Shown here: piece by piece, positions 2,954-12,710 of the stretch
Layout of the letters: the number at the start of each line of letters is the position of its first letter
Position numbering within the stretch: the first letter of the stretch is position 1
Source: Nitrososphaerales archaeon
GTDB taxonomy: Archaea; Thermoproteota; Nitrososphaeria; Nitrososphaerales; UBA213
Assembly (NCBI GenBank): GCA_965197925.1
Contig: CBDAOC010000003.1
Location: forward strand, 1-12,968
DNA: 12,968 nucleotides
Direction of reading: 5' to 3'
The notes under the pieces: model-generated
Told to the model about the DNA's origin: nothing
Database searches by the model: none
Seen by the model: the letters and a program-made list of their open reading frames with translations, nothing else
Translations under genes and position numbers: made by a program

Positions 2954-3412
2954 TCAAGAACTAGTATTGCGAGGCAAAAAATGATCAAGACATGAGTCAT
3001 CTTTGATGCGATTTATGATATCTGATGTAAACAACATGTCTGATGCATTGGCATTATCAGTCCAGCATCCATATATTATGTACAGCGGTTCATCAAAAAT
3101 ATAGTAAATCTTCAGATACTCTCCTGTGTATCCACCACTTGCATGAAGATTGGTAAATATCGGATCAGTTACTACAAAAATTATTTTGTTTGTGTTTACA
3201 TGTTTTGTAAGAAATTCTTTTACTTCTGGAATTTGTCTCATGTCATTAAGAGTTACAGAGTTACTTACATCATCAATTCTTTCATATGATGAAATAGTTT
3301 CATATAAAGTTTCATATAACGCAGGATATGAAAAAAATAATGATATTGTTGTGTATGTTCCAATCAACATTACTGCAACTACGACAATTATGATCAGAAT
3401 TTTGGTTTTCAT
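2954..3412 (-). CDS. hypothetical membrane-anchored/secreted protein (152 aa)
   Basis: MKTK followed by the hydrophobic stretch ILIIIVVVAVMLIGTY (signal/anchor), then a soluble domain with two Cys. Confidence 0.75.
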   Translation of the reverse strand: MKTKILIIIVVVAVMLIGTYTTISLFFSYPALYETLYETISSYERIDDVSNSVTLNDMRQIPEVKEFLTKHVNTNKIIFVVTDPIFTNLHASGGYTGEYLKIYYIFDEPLYIIYGCWTDNANASDMLFTSDIINRIKDDSCLDHFLPRNTSS

Positions 3413-4724: not shown

Positions 4725-5327
4725 CTATGAATCTATTTTTCTGTAGCTTCCCCGGGTCATTTTTGCAATGAATCCGAATCTTCTCTCATCTTTCAAAGAT
4801 GCAGAATTATACTTAATGTCTAGAATCAAATAAGCGGTTTTACCTTCCGACACATGAAAGGTAGCACCATAATCGTCAAACATATACAGGCTTTCACCCT
4901 GAGGCATAATTACAAAAACAGGCCCAAATTCTTCAGGCAATATCTCCTTTAATTCTTCAGGTAATATCTTCTTTCTTGAGGGTTGTTTATCTAAGATAAT
5001 TTTGTATCTGCCTTGAACATTAACTGCAGGAATTTGACCAAAATTTTTTAGGTTAATAGCTGTTTCCACACTTACAGCATCAAATTGTTTTCGCATCTCG
5101 TCAGACATTTTCTCAGACTTCCATTCATCAATTGTCATAGATTCTCCTTTTTTGTTCAACACTTTCACCGGAATGATACTTGTACCAAAGTCGCCAATCC
5201 AAGCTCTAAACATTATTTTTCTTTCTTTTCTTAATTGTGTGGTTTCATATGCTAGAATTATGAAGGCAGCAATAGTAGCAATACTAGCAATACTGCCGAT
5301 ACCTAGCCAAATTGTTAGGTCTACCAT
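4725..5327 (-). CDS. hypothetical protein with N-terminal membrane anchor (200 aa)
   Basis: Hydrophobic N-terminus IWLGIGSIASIATIAAFIILAY followed by basic residues and a beta-rich soluble region. Confidence 0.8.
   Translation of the reverse strand: MVDLTIWLGIGSIASIATIAAFIILAYETTQLRKERKIMFRAWIGDFGTSIIPVKVLNKKGESMTIDEWKSEKMSDEMRKQFDAVSVETAINLKNFGQIPAVNVQGRYKIILDKQPSRKKILPEELKEILPEEFGPVFVIMPQGESLYMFDDYGATFHVSEGKTAYLILDIKYNSASLKDERRFGFIAKMTRGSYRKIDS
4927..4974. repeat. 24-bp in-frame tandem duplication (22/24)
   Basis: aattcttcaggcaatatctccttt / aattcttcaggtaatatcttcttt, encoding KKILPEEL-KEILPEEF. Confidence 0.9.
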
Positions 5328-5762: not shown

Positions 5763-6236
5763 TTGAGCAAAATGTCAGTGCTAAAAGATGATGTAAAAAG
5801 TATAATCGAATTATGCAAATCAAAGGAAAATAAGGAACTTGATTTCAAACTAAAGTTAGACTTATCAGATGACAAAGCCAAAAACGAAATAGCTAAAGAT
5901 ATTTGTGCTTTTGCAAATGGTGAAAATGGGGGTAGAATTATTATTGGTGTGGATGATGAGACAAAGGTATTACTGGGTATCGACAAGCCATTAGATCATG
6001 ATAGAATCCAACTGATCGTTAGTAAGAGAGTCCTTCCGCCTCCAGAATTTGTAGTAGCTTCTTATCAGTTAAACTCCAAATTCGTTGGGATTATCAAAAT
6101 AGTGCCCGGAAGGGCAATTCATAGGATGAGCAACAACAACAAAGTACATGTTCGTAGAGAAGCAATCACAGATACAGCAACCCCTGAAGAGATATTTATA
6201 CTAAGAGCTTATCCGAAAATTAACATCATAGCCTAA
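5763..6236 (+). CDS. Schlafen/AlbA_2-domain protein, probably C-terminally truncated by an IS end
   Basis: Motifs ENKELDFK, EIAKDICAFANGENGGRIIIGVDD and VHVRREAITDTATPEEI. An alternative start is ATG5772. The last residues (RAYPKINIIA) are read from an IS inverted repeat at 6205. Confidence 0.85.
   Translation: MSKMSVLKDDVKSIIELCKSKENKELDFKLKLDLSDDKAKNEIAKDICAFANGENGGRIIIGVDDETKVLLGIDKPLDHDRIQLIVSKRVLPPPEFVVASYQLNSKFVGIIKIVPGRAIHRMSNNNKVHVRREAITDTATPEEIFILRAYPKINIIA
6205..6221. repeat. orphan IS5-type terminal inverted repeat GAGCTTATCCGAAAATT
   Basis: Matches the reverse complement of 9277-9293 (GAGCCTATCCTAAAATT) at 15/17. Preceded by TAA. Confidence 0.75.
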
Positions 6237-7498: not shown

Positions 7499-8158
7499 TC
7501 AAAGCCGATACAAACTATCAGGAGGTAGATAGTTAGAATTAGCATTAGTCTTATGCTTTATTAACTCACCATGGAGAGAACGTGCAGCATTGAATATTTC
7601 TTCAAATGCGGAGTTACTAAAATCTGTCTCTTTATCTCGACCATCATCTGAAAAGTAAATTTTTTGTCCACTAAATATGATATGAAAGCAACCCTTGGTA
7701 TTGGTGCCATATTCAATACAAGTAGTTTTTCTGGCACCAGTAATTCCATGTTTATCCAAATTTTTTATTCGATCATCAATATGTGTAAAGAAGTTTCTGA
7801 TATCACGGAATTTGTTTGCTGCATTATACAACTCAGTTAAAGGATGTCGTAATTCCATCATATTACCACATTTAATCGATTCTATTAGATTATAGAGGTC
7901 GCCGACTAGAGAAATGATAGCACGTAAAACGGCATAATCTTCGCTGGAGAGATCGATATTGATAATCATAGTATGAATGCCATCAACTTTAGTTGATACA
8001 CGACCCTGCCATTCTCTCGAAAATTTGGGTATCATAATATATAGAGATTCAAGTGTAGTGAAAATCCACGGAAGAATGTAATACATATGCGGATCTAGAC
8101 CATCGCTTCGCTCAGAACACCACCAGTGAATTGGTTCATCAATGTTAAAACTGCTCAT
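7499..8158 (-). CDS. hypothetical protein, putative HEPN-domain RNase (219 aa)
   Basis: Intact long ORF. Helical region contains KFRDIRNFFTHIDDRI, an RxxxxH motif (R-N-F-F-T-H at 7781-7798). The ORF is well supported, the HEPN call less so. Confidence 0.7.
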   Translation of the reverse strand: MSSFNIDEPIHWWCSERSDGLDPHMYYILPWIFTTLESLYIMIPKFSREWQGRVSTKVDGIHTMIINIDLSSEDYAVLRAIISLVGDLYNLIESIKCGNMMELRHPLTELYNAANKFRDIRNFFTHIDDRIKNLDKHGITGARKTTCIEYGTNTKGCFHIIFSGQKIYFSDDGRDKETDFSNSAFEEIFNAARSLHGELIKHKTNANSNYLPPDSLYRL

Positions 8159-8306
8159 TGTTTGTAGCTAATGCAACGGTTTTGTAGATAAATCCTACTC
8201 TATCCCGCGGCTATGTAGAAATTATACTATAAAGACAGTCATTCTGTGCATGTTATAAGCAATTACTCTAAATGTTAATTCCTTGTTCTGCATCTTAACA
8301 AGTCTT

Positions 8307-9293
8307 GATCTGTCCTCTCTAGCTAAATTTGTGATAAAAGCTAAGAAAAAGAGCATGCCGACCATATGGAATATACCAGACAATCTATGGGAAGAGTTCA
8401 AACTAGTGTTGCCACCAGAGAAACCAGCAAGAACAGTTGGAAGACCGGCCGTGCCATTTAGAAAAGTATTGAATGGAATACTGTATGTATTAAGAACTGG
8501 ATGCCAGTGGAAGAAGGTATCTAAAGAATTTGGTTCTGGTTCAACTTGCCATGCAAGATTTCAGGAATGGATTGGGATAGGAGTATTCGAAAAGGTATGG
8601 AAGAGGCTGCTGGAAATATATGATGAATTGAAGGGTATAGGATGGGACTGGCAATCCATGGATAGCGTACCGAAGGCCCCATTAGGGGGAAAACGACCGG
8701 AGCAAACCCAACGGATAGAGGTAAGCTAGGTACCAAACGTCACATGCTGGTTGATAGAAGAGGTATTCCTCTCTCATCTGTAATTACTGAAGCAAATAAA
8801 CACGATATGAAATCAGCCTTTCCTACAATAGATAGCATTGTTGTTGATAGGCCCAAAGTTAAACAGAACATATGCATGAATAGGATATGATTTCCCTGAG
8901 ATAGAGTATGGAGTTAGGAAGGGGATATGTGGATCACATTCGTCATAAGGGTGAAGTATTGAAAAAGAATTTGTACAAAGCAAAGAGATGGGTTGTAGAA
9001 AGAACCGCATCCTGGCATAATAGGTTCAGAAAGTTATTGGTAAGGTTCGAGAAGAAGAAGGAAAATTATCAGGCGCTAGTAGAATTTGCTAACTGCCTAA
9101 TAGTGTATAGAGCGATATATTGGTAGTGTCATAAACACGTTAATGCAACTGTTTCTAGTATCTACTATCTACAATACTAATAAAATCAATAGTAAGAAAA
9201 CTAAACCCGACAGTTTGAACTAATATTCTTGCATTCTAAATGTTATCATTTCTACCAATCATTAACTATCAGCTAGAATTTTAGGATAGGCTC
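8307..9293 (+). mobile_element. IS5-family element (IS402/IS427-like), copy 2; right IR present, left IR not found
   Basis: Homology with copy 1 begins at 8307. Right IR AATTTTAGGATAGGCTC at 9277-9293 is followed by TTA. Confidence 0.88.
8331..9126 (+). pseudogene. IS5-family transposase pseudogene
   Basis: GTG8331 OrfA runs to 8729 with a -1 heptamer G GGA AAA at 8687-8693. OrfB is broken near 8880 (DKGY lost) and 8921. C-terminus is RWVVERTASWHNRFRKLLVRFEKK. Confidence 0.9.
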
Positions 9294-9328: not shown

Positions 9329-10111
9329 ATGAGAGGTATGGAATTAACTTACTATAAGGAAAGCTATCTAGACAGGGTTTTTAGAAAGGGTGGAATCCAA
9401 AGAAGCCGTAAGATTGCAGGGTTGGCTTGGCGAAATTTGATAAGTTTGCTAGACCTAGTGAGCAGATAATTTTGGATATCAGAGAGGGAAGGCTTGACCC
9501 CTATAGAATGCTGGATGATTATGTAGGATACATGGACAAGACCAACATTAACCCGAACAGCATGAGCACGTATATGTAGTGGGTGAGAGGTTACATGATT
9601 TATTCAGATGTGGATATTTCTCCTTACAAATTCAAGCAAAGAGTAATGCTCCCCACAAAACGGATTCAGGGACGCCGAATTGAATAGGGAACAAATTAGT
9701 CGTGTTCTATCTGTACTACCGTTAAAACTTAGGATATTCTACATGATGATCATGACCACTTTGAGACGACCCAACGAAATTATCCATTTACGAGTAAGGG
9801 ACATCAATTTTGACACTAATCCAACTACGATAATGATCCCAGCTAACCTCTCCAAGAAGAGTGGAGGAACGACATTCACAACAATAGAGACTTCAGATCT
9901 AATATTGGATCATATCAAGCGGAATAAGCTGGGAATTGACGATTATATCTTTGGTAAAATACCCATGAGTAAAACACCGGTAGAACAGATGGACTATCTA
10001 TTCCGATATCACATGTGTAAATATTCAGATCTAAACTTAAGAGCCGAAGGAACCAACAGGCATGACATCTATATCTATAGTTTCAAGAAGTTTAGTTATA
10101 CTAGAGAATAA
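9329..10111 (+). pseudogene. tyrosine recombinase/integrase pseudogene
   Basis: N-terminal part (..DPYRMLDDYVGYMDK..INPNSMSTYM*WVRGY) has a TAG at 9577-9579 and shifts near 9427 and 9670. Catalytic box I is TTLRRPNEIIHLRVRDINFD and HxxR is degenerate (IYSFKKF). The ORF ends before the catalytic Tyr. Confidence 0.82.
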
Positions 10112-10216
10112 TGGAAGATAATATAGGATGGATTTTAGTATAATTTCTGGTACAATCTAACCATAAATTTCGATATTGTTAAATGTATAAGGAATAACTA
10201 GCCAATAGGTGTAATA

Positions 10217-11440
10217 ATGGAAGAAGCACAACATATTTCTACACTTCAGGGATACATCTTCGCATGCACTATTAAGACTGAGAAAGAGTGTTTTGACCGC
10301 ATGCTCTTCGCAACTAATAGGATATATGTGGACAAGGTCTATCAGGTTAAGAAAAATGATGCTTTGTTTTTGTTCAACTTGAATACTGATATTCTTTATG
10401 GTGTGTTTAGAGCCAAATCAGATGGGAAAAAGGATATCGTACCAGAAGCTTGGAAAGGAGGCTATCCATATCAGGTAGAAGTATTTAGAGATGGCGAAAT
10501 AAGAGAAGTGAAAAAAGCTTCAAACATACTTTCGAAAATGGGTATAAATTGGAAAGTAACTTTAGATGAAAACAGAACCAAACTGCTGTTAGACTACTTT
10601 GGAAATCCTGTAGAATTTGACTGGGGACCCTTGTTAAGGGAGAGGCATACCGAGAAGAAAGGAAATAATTCTTTGTTAGAAGAGAGTGTGGAAGATAAAC
10701 CAAGGTTATCTACTACAACATTATGGGATTACCCACGCCAAAGTTATGGAAAAAACCCAAAAGGAGATAACAAGTACGCTGGCGTAACTCCAGCATTCAT
10801 TATCTATAACATGATCAAGCGTTATACAGAACCTGGTGATTTGGTTGTAGATCCGATGGCAGGTAGTGGAACAACATTAGAAGTATGTAATGAAGAAGGC
10901 CGTAAGTGCATTGCTTATGACATCTCTCCCCCAAGACCAAATATCATCCAAAATGATGCTAGAAAAATACCACTTTCTGACAATAGTGTAGATATGATAT
11001 TTGTAGATTCTCCGTATGGAGATAATATAAGATACAATGAGCATCCTGATGACATGGGAAAAATTTCTTCAGAGACCGAAATATTTTATGATGAATTGAA
11101 TAAAGTGATGCAGGAATGTCAAAGGATATTGAAGCCTGGAAAAGTTCTTGGTTGGTTAATAGGAGACCAATGGGTTAAGAAAAAATTTACTCCTGTTGGA
11201 TTCAAAATCTATCAGAGATTATGCAAGCATTTTGAGACGGTAGATACTATTTGCGTCGTTCGTAGAGGACAAGCATCGAACACGGGAATATGGTACAACA
11301 GAGCTTTACGTTTTAATTTCTATTTACGTGGTTTCAAATATTTGTTCATAATGAGAAAAGTCCCTTCAAATGATGTTATTAAGAAAGAAAGAAAAATCAG
11401 TTGGTCCCGATATCCTAGGAACAATGTAAAACGAAAGTAA
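10217..11440 (+). CDS. DNA amino-methyltransferase (probably N4-cytosine) with N-terminal DCD domain
   Basis: aa ~12-90 (GYIFACT..TEKECFDRMLF...LFLFN...LYGVFRA.SDG..DIVPEAW...YPYQV) fit the DCD consensus. aa ~163-407 form the MTase: TTLWDYP, motif I DPMAGSGTT (aa 212) and motif IV-like DSPY (aa 264). Confidence 0.9.
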   Translation: MEEAQHISTLQGYIFACTIKTEKECFDRMLFATNRIYVDKVYQVKKNDALFLFNLNTDILYGVFRAKSDGKKDIVPEAWKGGYPYQVEVFRDGEIREVKKASNILSKMGINWKVTLDENRTKLLLDYFGNPVEFDWGPLLRERHTEKKGNNSLLEESVEDKPRLSTTTLWDYPRQSYGKNPKGDNKYAGVTPAFIIYNMIKRYTEPGDLVVDPMAGSGTTLEVCNEEGRKCIAYDISPPRPNIIQNDARKIPLSDNSVDMIFVDSPYGDNIRYNEHPDDMGKISSETEIFYDELNKVMQECQRILKPGKVLGWLIGDQWVKKKFTPVGFKIYQRLCKHFETVDTICVVRRGQASNTGIWYNRALRFNFYLRGFKYLFIMRKVPSNDVIKKERKISWSRYPRNNVKRK

Positions 11441-11467
11441 GTAAAATGAAATCGAAAAGGTAACACA

Positions 11468-12169
11468 ATGAAACTTGCTGATTTAGTAAAGCTCTATGAA
11501 CGTATGAAAGAAGAGTATGGAGTTAATGCTTACAAGCATATTTCTCAACTCTTACGTGATGCTAAAGAAATTCATAAACAGAGCTTCTTGCAAAGTGATA
11601 CTACAAAGCGAGCTATCAATGAAGGAAGAACGCCTGATCATGAACAATCATGGAGAGCTTTCAAAGGCAAAAATCTTGAGAAGTTAATAATGCATATAAT
11701 AGAGGATGAGGTAGAAACACTTGGACTGAAGATAGTAGAAGGCAACACATTAGAAAGGACGAATAGTTCTAACCTCTCCAAAGAATTGAATTCGGTAAAG
11801 AGGAATCTTTTGATTGATTATGGAGAATTTGGTTACCATTTGCCCGATGTTGATCTAATAATCTATAATCCTTCCAAACGTAAAGTTATAGCGGTGATTT
11901 CTAGCAAGGTTACCCTGCGAGAGAGGATAGCGCAAACAGGCTACTGGAAAATTAAACTTTCCAATGACGAGATAACAAAACATGTTAAAGTCTTCTTCAT
12001 AACACCTGACGAGGATGGTACTCTTACTACGAAAAGTCCTGCTAAAAAAGGCAGAGCAATAGTAGAGGTTGATACTGATGGAAGCTATATAATGAGTGAA
12101 ACTAAAGTTGACGAGAGTAATAAAGTCAAGATGTTTGACAAATTTATTGATGATCTGAAAATCTGTTAA
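11468..12169 (+). CDS. type II restriction endonuclease, BsaWI/MjaVI-like (CCGG family)
   Basis: QSWRAFKGKNLE, LPDVD-x-K (PD-X19-K), KVTLRER (the R-(D/E)R motif of CCGG-family enzymes) and a downstream TPDED. Starts 27 bp after the MTase on the same strand. Confidence 0.85.
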   Translation: MKLADLVKLYERMKEEYGVNAYKHISQLLRDAKEIHKQSFLQSDTTKRAINEGRTPDHEQSWRAFKGKNLEKLIMHIIEDEVETLGLKIVEGNTLERTNSSNLSKELNSVKRNLLIDYGEFGYHLPDVDLIIYNPSKRKVIAVISSKVTLRERIAQTGYWKIKLSNDEITKHVKVFFITPDEDGTLTTKSPAKKGRAIVEVDTDGSYIMSETKVDESNKVKMFDKFIDDLKIC

Positions 12170-12238
12170 TTAATTGAGGTATAGGCATAATTCCATAACA
12201 AAAATAACCTGGTGCATCTGATTGATTAACTTCCGAGC

Positions 12239-12710
12239 ATGTGCTTCAATGCCCTTAATGGCCTTGATGTAAGACCGTTATTCAAAAAGAGCCAAGAGAT
12301 TGCAGGAAAGAAACCCAAAATGCTGCTATCTGACGGAGCTAAGAATTTCATGCAGGCTCACAAGAAAGAATGGTACATCCGATACAAGGAAGAACAGACC
12401 CAACATATCATACATATTCACTTCAAAAATGACAGAAATACAAACAAGATGGAACGTCCGAATGGGGAAATCAGAGACCGTGAAAAAGTAATGAGATCTC
12501 TAAAAACTGACGATTCACCAATTATCAAGGGTATGTAGATTTATCATAACTACATTCGTTCCCACATGGGAATTGATGGACATGCCAAGTGAGAAAGCAG
12601 GAATCAAGCTGAGGGACTAAACAGGTGGATTACAATCATTCAAAACTCTCAGGTCTCTACACTTGACAGGAGAAAATTATGAGTCAAAGCCTCGTTAACT
12701 TGACAGAACC
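12239..12710 (+). mobile_element. IS6-family remnant (5'-truncated transposase pseudogene plus right IR)
   Basis: GKKPKMLLSDGA..F and NNKMER-like NTNKMERPNGEIRDREKVMR. Homology reads through TAG12536-12538 (IYHNYIRSHMGIDG..EKAGI..RWITIIQN). Terminal AACTTGACAGAACC (12697-12710) is the reverse complement of GGTTCTGTCAAGTT, an IS6-type end. Confidence 0.88.

Follow-up and report, generated by a model that had tools for sequence, protein, structure and literature searches.

A predicted restriction–modification cassette with a DCD-fused methyltransferase in an ammonia-oxidising archaeon

The closest described relatives of the locus analysed here come from genome comparison. In its passages on DCD domains, the survey by Bell, Wolf & Koonin 2020 (BMC Biol 18:159, PMC7641849) notes that DCD is often fused to a methyltransferase and that a PD-(D/E)XK nuclease gene usually comes after the fusion, and it lists such DCD–methyltransferase and nuclease pairs, found in silico, in archaea and thermophilic bacteria. 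For the nuclease, the reference enzyme is BsaWI (W/CCGGW); Tamulaitis et al. 2015 (PMC4652773) give E92, D145 and K165 as active-site residues and R169-D170-R171 as the motif that reads CCGG. A third point of contact is the survey of archaeal restriction–modification systems by Anton et al. 2023 (PMC10609329), where a group of persistent orphan m4C methylases, HG21, with unknown site, is listed for 5/5 Nitrososphaera genomes. We found no experiment in the literature on the reader-plus-writer function of a DCD-methylase. Among later papers in which the term DCD domain occurs, the EcoSal Plus 2025 review has text on EVE domains only, and the paper on BisI homologues and the 2026 paper on BREX carry only the Bell et al. 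reference.

The present gene pair lies in a window of 12,968 nucleotides, by which we mean the whole stretch of DNA analysed. The host genome (98.7% complete) is that of an ammonia-oxidising archaeon; a methanogen host was considered and rejected, as MCR_alpha was not found in this genome and archaeal AmoA is present. A first-pass annotation, made from the letters of the DNA, had described a Type II-style methylase–restriction pair in which a single uninterrupted frame joins a DCD domain to an amino-methyltransferase. Both parts of that description hold: the frame carries Pfam matches to PF10539 and PF01555, and a RE_BsaWI ORF begins 27 nt downstream of the methylase stop codon (Table 1). Reading of the sequence also places a Shine–Dalgarno-like AGGTG at 10207–10211, upstream of the fusion gene. 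One 2,086-nt contig in each of runs X1 and X3, which come from two different studies, covers 10157–12242 with 0 differences and is thus identical across the DCD–methylase junction. In run X9, which belongs to a third study, the sequence from 10100 to 12203 differs by 10 substitutions and by one nucleotide inserted after 11425, close to the C-terminal end of the methylase, and has no indels in the linker. The first-pass annotation had named a stop or a mis-assembly in the linker as evidence against the fusion; module-bearing assemblies of other studies contain neither a stop nor an indel there.

Table 1 Features of the gene pair and its immediate flanks
Feature	Position	Strand	Description
Left-flank short ORF, probably a remnant	9680..10111	+	Weak Phage_integrase Pfam match, E 1.5e-3, below cut-off
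Methylase 5' intergenic region	10112..10216	+	105 nt, A+T-rich; sequence read and ORF list
DCD–methyltransferase fusion gene	10217..11440	+	407 aa plus stop; ATG start, uninterrupted ORF
DCD domain, modelled EVE/YTH-type PUA-like fold	10244..10606	+	aa 10–130; Pfam PF10539, AF2 model, structural alignments
Linker region	10607..10771	+	aa 131–185; alignment and model confidence
Amino-methyltransferase core	10772..11437	+	aa 186–407; circular permutation with respect to the beta class
Motif I DPMAGSGTT	10850–10876	+	aa 212–220
Motif IV DSPY	11006–11017	+	aa 264–267
Predicted BsaWI-family (CCGG-family) PD-(D/E)XK restriction endonuclease gene	11468..12169	+	233 aa plus stop
Nuclease catalytic and recognition block	11843–11926	+	P126-D127-x-D129 ... 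S145-x-K147 ... R151-E152-R153
Right-flank high-copy repeat	12188..12538	+	Begins right after the nuclease stop; transposase fragment ORF 12239–12538 inside

The surroundings are those of a decayed island, as had been noted from the sequence: IS4/5-type transposase pieces (DUF4096, DDE_Tnp_1), a Schlafen/AlbA_2 ORF and the weak integrase fragment lie around the pair. At the right-hand repeat, summed contig depth climbs from ~28 to ~1580 (12188–12250), and the transposase fragment inside it shares 46% identity (E 1e-19) with the transposase adjoining the second DCD-methylase copy of the genome. To call the pair the only intact module went too far, because several further ORFs of 150–219 aa in the window, without a Pfam match, are also open. 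Scans of the window for tRNAs and Rfam families returned no match, and NCBIfam gave no family at cut-off for the methylase or the nuclease protein.

Within the 407-aa protein, N6_N4_Mtase (PF01555) is matched in two stretches (E 1.3e-23). The best solved relative is TTHA0409 (2zie; phmmer E 4.5e-12), which aligns in reversed order, with query residues 159–252 on chain residues 187–282 and query residues 246–322 on chain residues 27–104. As motif I precedes motif IV, the enzyme is a permuted relative of the beta class and not a strict member of it. The catalytic-domain motifs are common to this protein and to beta-class N4C/N6A enzymes (TTHA0409, M.RsrI, M.PvuII and CcrM); unlike those enzymes, in which motif IV comes before motif I, it has the motif X/I block first and motif IV afterwards, and it bears an extra N-terminal DCD domain. 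The usual catalytic motif IV of N6_N4 amino-methyltransferases is (S/D/N)PP(Y/F), and that of the beta-class enzymes is (S/D)PPY, whereas the motif here is an unusual DSPY; its residues D264, S265, P266 and Y267, which align to the SPPY of TTHA0409, are invariant in 81/81 sequences. DSPY is compatible with both N4C and N6A methylation and does not decide between them. Other strongly conserved segments of the methylase are aa 161–194 and aa 349–376. There are also relatives of the same permuted methylase, at 38–47% identity, that have no DCD; the core enzyme therefore needs no reader, an observation that tells against the mechanism we prefer below.

The nuclease is, by its sequence motifs, a CCGG-family, BsaWI-like Type II endonuclease, as had been proposed at first pass. 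In the 233-aa protein, RE_BsaWI (PF18643) is matched at aa 105–209 (E 2.9e-35; 120.9 bits, the cut-off being 26.2) over positions 2–105 of the 105 in the profile; the R-E-R motif is intact, as are the putative catalytic residues. When aligned to BsaWI (4zsf), E71, D129 and K147 fall on E92, D145 and K165, and R151-E152-R153 falls on R169-D170-R171, so that the R-(D/E)R motif is present; all of these residues are kept in 31–32 of the 32 partner nucleases. The two enzymes differ elsewhere. Whole-sequence similarity to BsaWI is marginal (phmmer E 0.76), and, of the residues named in the BsaWI study, K85 (outer base pair) is A64 and D175 (the second acidic residue) is T157 in the nuclease alignment. 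The acidic residues D181, E182, D183, E200, D202 and D204, conserved in 29/32, are candidates for the second acidic position. Taken together, the motifs appear to be the standard set of a modification-blocked Type IIP enzyme of the CCGG family and not that of a modification-dependent enzyme. Genome composition lends the predicted site no support, because neither CCGG (observed/expected 0.92) nor NCCGGN (0.83–1.32) is avoided in the 2.9-Mb host genome, and it is uninformative about specificity. The 1,953-bp module contains 0 CCGG sites, which is not significant (14.7 are expected in the whole window from its mononucleotide composition).

The N-terminal part is, on the evidence of its structural model, a genuine PUA-like domain of the EVE/YTH type. 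Dev_Cell_Death (PF10539) is matched at aa 12–95 of the 407-aa protein (E 7.6e-20; 71.4 bits, the cut-off being 27.8), which confirms the DCD identity assigned at first pass; the length of ~80 aa assigned with it was too short, as the AF2 model and structural alignments extend the domain to about 120 aa (aa 10–130). A search of PDB sequences with the DCD alignment profile returned a marginal EVE match, MJECL36 (E 0.14), and otherwise chance rows, so that a fold search was needed. The AF2 model of the domain (pLDDT 89.9, pTM 0.83) was aligned by VIA-align to the EVE protein PH1033 (Z 13.0, rmsd 2.4, 116 aligned residues), YTH domains (Z 9.6–10.9), VcaM4I (Z 10.2) and THYN1 with 5mC DNA (Z 8.9), and McrB-N with m5C DNA was also matched; the 15 chains at Z >= 8 are all of EVE, YTH, ASCH or THYN1 types. 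Foldseek gave 48 matches at E <= 1e-3 with YTH and EVE proteins on top, in line with the PUA-like fold suggested from the sequence. Conserved aromatic and polar residues (F51, N54, F64, W79, Y83 and Y85) are candidates for lining a pocket. Among nuclease-linked members, conservation is lower in the DCD than in the methylase core (0.44 versus 0.74 mean pairwise identity) and W79 is replaced by F in 8/32; both observations weigh against the mechanism preferred below.

The linker that follows has two unlike halves. Residues ~131–160, the linker proper, are of low model confidence and vary in length and sequence (mean pairwise identity 0.16–0.28), and residues 161–185 are strongly conserved, are modelled with low confidence and probably form a DNA-contact loop of the methylase; pLDDT is below 50 throughout aa 142–185. 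A complex prediction between the DCD (aa 8–135) and the methylase part (aa 150–407) was neutral on docking (score 0.02, mark 0.32).

The rarity or novelty implied at first pass did not stand. The architecture is real and widespread and had been described by genome comparison in 2020, in the DCD passages of Bell et al. A homologue search with the DCD-methylase returned 3133 hits, and the best 120 of these all have both the DCD and the methylase Pfam domains (120/120), with 98% identity to P0003 and 62–76% to the 119 others. Of 268 pattern-matched stretches from a set of genomes at species level, 264 belong to the family, and the DCD is kept in 81/81 family members. The family is large, not rare. 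The nuclease accompanies it unevenly: in 31 of the 80 loci examined in relatives, a strong nuclease homologue lies directly downstream, in 4 more the nuclease is full-length but divergent or is cut by a contig end, and about half of the 80 loci are solitary methylases. Of 60 related genomes, 3 contain the methylase, and the nuclease adjoins it in these same 3; 8 genomes of the host's own family gave none. The cassette is spread over many archaeal and bacterial phyla and is a self-contained, patchily distributed, mobile two-gene unit.

One group of solitary methylases stands apart. Thirty-two Nitrososphaera-type sequences form a clade (SH-aLRT 100) in which 31 loci have no nuclease and the 32nd is too short to tell; the nuclease-free loci sit in a housekeeping neighbourhood, between AA_kinase and PstS/PhoU genes. 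The DCD core residues F51, N54, G62, F64, W79, Y83 and P84 are kept in 37–38 of 38 nuclease-free loci, which ties the DCD to methylation itself and not to control of the nuclease. The HG21 group of Anton et al. might be this solitary DCD-methylase.

We consider it very probable that the locus is an intact, horizontally acquired restriction–modification cassette, with a permuted N4-cytosine or N6-adenine methyltransferase that carries a complete EVE/YTH-type DCD on a flexible linker and would protect the host sites, and with a BsaWI-family nuclease predicted to cut at a CCGG core. The elements of this statement are either shown or a direct consequence of family membership. The role of the DCD is held far more tentatively. 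It is possible, at rather less than an even prospect, that the domain reads the product of its own methylase: it would bind the mark on the parental strand and thereby hold the enzyme at hemimethylated sites after replication. The resulting maintenance bias would keep host sites protected and make unmethylated incoming DNA less likely to be methylated into immunity. A constant ligand for the DCD is plausible because the cassette moves between many phyla, and the sole mark certain to accompany it would be its own product. Own-mark reading would also explain why the Nitrososphaera lineage keeps a solitary, persistent DCD-methylase after nuclease loss. Against own-mark reading, an RNA ligand is possible, since RNA readers (YTH) are among the closest structural matches. 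As a whole, the identity of the cassette together with own-mark reading by the DCD is the best explanation we can offer, and we put it somewhat short of even.

Other roles for the DCD have to be weighed against own-mark reading. The published inference for this architecture, given in the DCD passages of Bell et al. (PMC7641849), is that the domain recognises a different, pre-existing modification and that the methylase adds a supplementary methyl, sparing the DNA from the neighbouring nuclease. The structural relatives of the DCD do include the readers of modification-dependent nucleases (VcaM4I and McrB-N), yet the motifs of the nuclease here appear to be of the modification-blocked kind, and the unit has two genes with no second methylase (0/34 ORFs downstream of the nuclease in the loci examined). 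The cassette also occurs in many phyla whose own modifications differ, and solitary methylases keep the DCD, so that we regard such supplementary marking as quite unlikely. It is unlikely, if less so, that the DCD reads no modification and is a general nucleic-acid-binding or target-recognition helper (a clamp, a module that grips an unmodified base once it is flipped out, or one that binds single strands) and makes the methylase bind more tightly or act more processively. The permuted order would put the N-terminus where beta-class enzymes carry their target-recognition region, and ParB_N DNA-binding modules, with or without HTH_ParB, occupy the same N-terminal position in 9 of 69 representatives of relatives scanned. 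Against a helper of this sort, the long, variable, low-confidence linker favours a tethered domain over an integral recognition domain, the methylase segments aa 161–194 and aa 349–376 are better candidates for sequence recognition, and the close ligand-bound structural matches are all modified-base readers.

A last alternative starts from the missing controller. No helix-turn-helix or controller-type protein is encoded among the 20 window ORFs scanned, as the first-pass annotation had observed, and the 105-nt gap 5' of the methylase holds no controller ORF by the ORF list and the sequence. The DCD might then replace the controller as regulator of the operon, sensing methylation of its own promoter or binding mRNA and so timing methylase and nuclease. 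Some relatives do bear an N-terminal HTH_17/MerR domain (12 of the best 120 homologues; 2/81 loci), of the kind that autoregulates other methylases. These variants retain the DCD, however, so the HTH is no replacement for it; nuclease-free methylases, which have nothing to time, retain the DCD core residues as well. The upstream region (10112..10216) lacks CCGG, and a scan of it for operators revealed short, weak repeats only, none convincingly operator-like. We judge a regulatory role very improbable.

We know of no measurement of what DCD domains do in prokaryotes or, by extension, of what plant DCD proteins do, and the DCD-methylase family, small in its gene number (two) and abundant, offers a system for such tests in which the target (a CCGG core) can be predicted. 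Were own-mark reading true, it would reveal a way for a Type II system to reduce the chance that invading DNA becomes protected by accident. It is rather doubtful that the most far-reaching form of this reading applies, in which the parental-strand mark recognised by the DCD is the N4-methylcytosine or N6-methyladenine that the enzyme itself writes. The enzyme would then be the first Type II methyltransferase of prokaryotes to have reader–writer maintenance built in and, after nuclease loss, could have been kept by the Nitrososphaera lineage as a heritable epigenetic methylase. The nuclease-free clade suggests that soil ammonia oxidisers possess a persistent epigenetic methylase; its recognition site could be found in existing methylome data.

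In eukaryotes, reader–writer maintenance methylation is represented by the SRA domain of UHRF1 with DNMT1, of which own-mark reading by the DCD would provide a bacterial and archaeal counterpart. The likeness, which applies to that reading only, is that a PUA-like or SRA-type base-flipping reader would guide a methyltransferase to hemimethylated DNA; in the DCD-methylase, by contrast, reader and writer share one polypeptide and the proposed mark is m4C or m6A. It is an analogy of mechanism alone and not of family, with the DCD-methylase known here from sequence and model. The closer comparison is with the module of Bell et al., which in the passages that describe it has the same architecture as here (an N-terminal DCD, a Rossmann-fold methyltransferase and then a PD-(D/E)XK nuclease) and shows no difference in kind. 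The locus thus adds a further instance to an architecture that had been catalogued in 2020, and the present analysis contributes the assignment of the nuclease to the BsaWI family, the large size of the methylase family, the patchy distribution of the two-gene unit and the nuclease-free Nitrososphaera clade.

The DCD-methylase and the nuclease behind it form an intact methylase–endonuclease pair of known families, in which a genuine PUA-like DCD domain is tethered to the methylase. In the 407-aa protein, Dev_Cell_Death (PF10539) matches residues 12–95 (E = 7.6 × 10−20; 71.4 bits, cut-off 27.8) and N6_N4_Mtase (PF01555; E = 1.3 × 10−23) takes up the remainder, and the 233-aa protein covers the RE_BsaWI profile in full (PF18643; E = 2.9 × 10−35). 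Neither protein has an NCBIfam model at cut-off. The first-pass annotation described one uninterrupted frame with an endonuclease directly after it, and the ORF calls, Pfam matches and intergenic gap bear this out (Table).

Coordinates of the gene pair, the second host copy and the loci of the large nuclease-free clade
Feature	Location	Strand	Description
DCD-methylase	10217–11440	+	407-aa frame, ATG start, no interruption
Nuclease	11468–12169	+	233 aa; 27-nt gap after the methylase ORF
Second DCD-methylase of the host genome (G000)	contig C20, L082:567–1785	−	frameshift-split, overlapping 238-aa and 199-aa ORFs
32-sequence clade	L014, L016–L019, L021, L023, L025–L028, L030–L039, L041, L042, L045, L047, L048, L051–L054, L060, L075

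To a first-pass concern about a stop or mis-assembly in the linker, public sequencing runs give a clear answer: contigs from X1, X3 and X9 carry no linker stop or indel, and the fusion is not an assembly artefact. A single 2,086-nt contig covers 10157–12242 with zero differences in X1 and again in X3 (runs from two studies; one of the two runs may be the source sample). The X9 contig, from a third study, covers 10100–12203 with 10 substitutions and one A inserted after 11425, which alters the methylase only in its last residues and agrees with a 415-aa database variant (P0003, 98% identical). This natural strain variant stops a few bases 5′ of the nuclease start codon. Alternative low-depth contigs in two runs match the window over 10157–10288 and then diverge, which suggests the same promoter-proximal segment at another locus or in another strain. 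An RNA library (X15) yielded a 298-nt contig identical to 10417–10714, which is a weak hint that the DCD-methylase gene is transcribed.

The window is a complete 12,968-bp contig (C3) of a 2.91-Mb genome in 20 contigs. That genome has 38.1% GC, carries archaeal amoA, lacks mcrA and belongs to an ammonia-oxidising archaeon. The pair sits in a heavily decayed island, as had been noted at first pass: four DUF4096 transposase pieces, several DDE_Tnp_1 pieces and a Schlafen/AlbA_2 ORF flank it, a weak integrase fragment lies immediately 5′ of the methylase gene, and a high-copy repeat, which includes a transposase fragment, starts just beyond the nuclease stop codon. The 20 window ORFs scanned include no HTH or controller protein, again in line with that annotation, and tRNA and Rfam scans of the window found nothing. 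Two closely similar DUF4096 (IS4/5-type transposase N-terminal) ORFs, at 155–553 (−) and 8283–8729 (+), are inverted about 7.7 kb apart and enclose IS fragments, the Schlafen/AlbA_2 ORF (5763–6236) and unannotatable ORFs (4725–5327, 7499–8158 and 2954–3412). An exact 12-nt direct repeat, AATAATGGAAGA, occurs where the integrase-like fragment ends (10107–10118) and, 106 nt away, across the methylase start codon (10213–10224). The second host copy, with an N-terminal part 62% identical to the window gene, adjoins a transposase; no BsaWI-family nuclease homologue was found elsewhere in the host genome.

The DCD identity of the N terminus, earlier proposed for a segment of about 80 residues, holds by both Pfam and structure; the length does not, as the domain spans about 120 aa and exceeds the Pfam match. 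Searched against all representative structures, the DCD matched the EVE protein PH1033 (Z = 13.0, rmsd 2.4, 116 aligned), YTH m6A readers (Z = 9.6–10.9), VcaM4I (Z = 10.2), THYN1 with bound 5mC DNA (Z = 8.9), ASCH (Z = 8.8) and McrB-N with bound m5C DNA (Z = 7.6), and no unrelated fold exceeded Z = 8. Foldseek agreed. The conserved residues F51, N54, F64, W79, Y83 and Y85 are candidates for lining a pocket.

The best solved relative of the methylase, TTHA0409 (2zie; E = 4.5 × 10−12), aligns as two segments whose order is exchanged (query 159–252 with chain 187–282, query 246–322 with chain 27–104); the enzyme therefore has the beta-class layout in circularly permuted form. Motif I (DPMAGSGTT) precedes motif IV, which reads DSPY, an unusual form, without exception in the 81 family members; the predicted product is m4C or m6A, between which the sequence does not decide. 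Residues 131–160 vary in length and sequence across the family, and residues 142–185 have pLDDT < 50 in the model, yet 161–185 are almost invariant, consistent with a DCD on a tether and with a DNA-contact loop belonging to the methylase. An exhaustive search with residues 150–407 found 5,073 representatives at E ≤ 10−3. Among 69 of at least about 230 aa, picked from the 150 listed and scanned with Pfam, only P0123 has a DCD, and many are stand-alone proteins of 238–290 aa (38–47% identity); nine carry an N-terminal ParB_N, with or without HTH_ParB, and one a DUF3102. The DCD was thus joined onto a permuted methylase that already existed, at a site where other DNA-binding modules are also accepted.

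A word-indexed protein search gave 3,133 matches to the DCD-methylase. The 120 listed (62–98% identity) all have PF10539 and PF01555, and come from Nitrososphaerales, Bathyarchaeia, Nanoarchaeota, Thermodesulfovibrio, Syntrophorhabdaceae and others; in 12, the N terminus also bears an HTH_17/MerR domain, which may be an autoregulatory module. This domain precedes the DCD in P0015, P0030, P0032, P0034, P0040, P0043, P0046, P0048, P0052, P0057, P0062 and others, and at loci L008 and L009; HTH-bearing members are Thermodesulfovibrionales and relatives. Of 268 pattern-matched stretches in one-genome-per-species contigs, 264 code for a relative. We examined the neighbours of the best 80; with the window added, both Pfam families are present in 81 of 81 sequences and the HTH in 2. 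The survey of the combined architecture proposed at first pass found a strong homologue of the window nuclease (P0002) directly downstream at 31 of these 80 loci. The homologue is full-length but divergent at two, truncated by the contig end at two and reduced to remnants (61 and 84 aa) at two; three Dehalococcoidia loci have weak RE_BsaWI matches, convergent or upstream, 38 have no nuclease even though 700 bp or more of sequence follows, and two are too short to judge. The remnants, directly 3′ of intact DCD-methylases (L003:1634–1816 and L070:3713–3964), seem to capture the nuclease in the course of decay.

Same-strand ORFs 3′ of the nuclease are mostly housekeeping, with Z1 and ResIII in two loci; methylases are absent among them (0/34), which makes the unit a cassette of two genes. 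The same-strand Z1 + ResIII helicase-type gene behind the cassette in two bacterial loci (L007:6169–8043 and L013:6190–8046) looks like a further defence gene stacked behind the pair. Of 60 host-related genomes (eight from the host's own family, 52 from its order), three have the methylase and the same three, adjacent to it, the nuclease; it was found in none of the eight same-family genomes, and such patchy presence is the pattern of horizontal transfer.

The 81 methylases were placed in a quick maximum-likelihood tree. It has a 32-sequence clade (SH-aLRT 100) labelled throughout as Nitrososphaera, Nitrososphaeraceae or unclassified Thermoproteota, in which 31 of the 38 nuclease-free loci fall together with one locus that is too short to judge. 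Housekeeping neighbours are common to its loci: AA_kinase lies upstream, and downstream is PstS-like PBP_like_2, PhoU or a secreted F5/8-type-C protein. Four Nitrosopolaris-type sequences form a second nuclease-free clade, sister to the locus with the 61-aa remnant. Nuclease-free copies keep F51, N54, G62, F64, W79, Y83 and P84 in 37–38 of 38, and residue 85 is Y in 33 and F in five; their mean pairwise identity is 0.63 for the DCD and 0.81 for the methylase core, compared with 0.44 and 0.74 in the nuclease-linked set. Because the tree is midpoint-rooted only and its rows are kin, we claim only that the nuclease was lost repeatedly while the DCD was retained. The large clade may correspond to HG21, given as a persistent orphan m4C methylase group with an ‘unknown site’ (PMC10609329).

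We tentatively favour recognition of the methylase's own mark at hemimethylated sites, which would bias the enzyme towards maintenance, because the cassette moves between phyla as a two-gene unit and the methylase's own product would be the sole modification certain to accompany it. A DNA-binding helper blind to modification seems unlikely. Somewhat less probable is the published model, supplementary methylation of DNA that already carries another modification; two points speak against it, neither decisively, namely that the nuclease has canonical Type IIP motifs and that the cassette contains no second methylase. The DCD is retained in every family member, nuclease-free ones included. An autoregulatory role is improbable: both its persistence in solitary methylases and its place beside the HTH in HTH-bearing variants count, though not decisively, against a purely regulatory function.

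Among 14 control genomes, the RE_BsaWI family was found in M. jannaschii only; no DCD was found there, and its BsaWI-type nuclease, which we take to be MjaVI, is therefore unpaired with a DCD-methylase. Direct similarity of the window nuclease to BsaWI is marginal (E = 0.76). In the alignment, E71, D129 and K147 correspond to the BsaWI active site (E92, D145 and K165), and R151-E152-R153 to R169-D170-R171, the CCGG-reading R-(D/E)R motif (PMC4652773); equivalents are conserved in 31–32 of 32 partner nucleases. Together with the profile match, this agrees with the first-pass call of a CCGG-family, BsaWI-like enzyme. By contrast, BsaWI K85 (outer base pair) aligns with A64, and D175, the second acidic residue, with T157.

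A full-text search of the open-access literature found no experimental study of a DCD-methylase fusion, as first supposed, and the later papers examined that contain the term DCD add nothing on it beyond reference-list citations of Bell et al. or review text on EVE domains. The architecture, which the first pass could not confirm as unreported, is explicitly stated in the section ‘DCD, an EVE-like domain...’ of Bell, Wolf & Koonin 2020 (PMC7641849). The locus is a further example of a known architecture, not a new category, and that architecture is usefully extended by the BsaWI-family assignment of the nuclease, the family size and the Nitrososphaera clade of solitary methylases.
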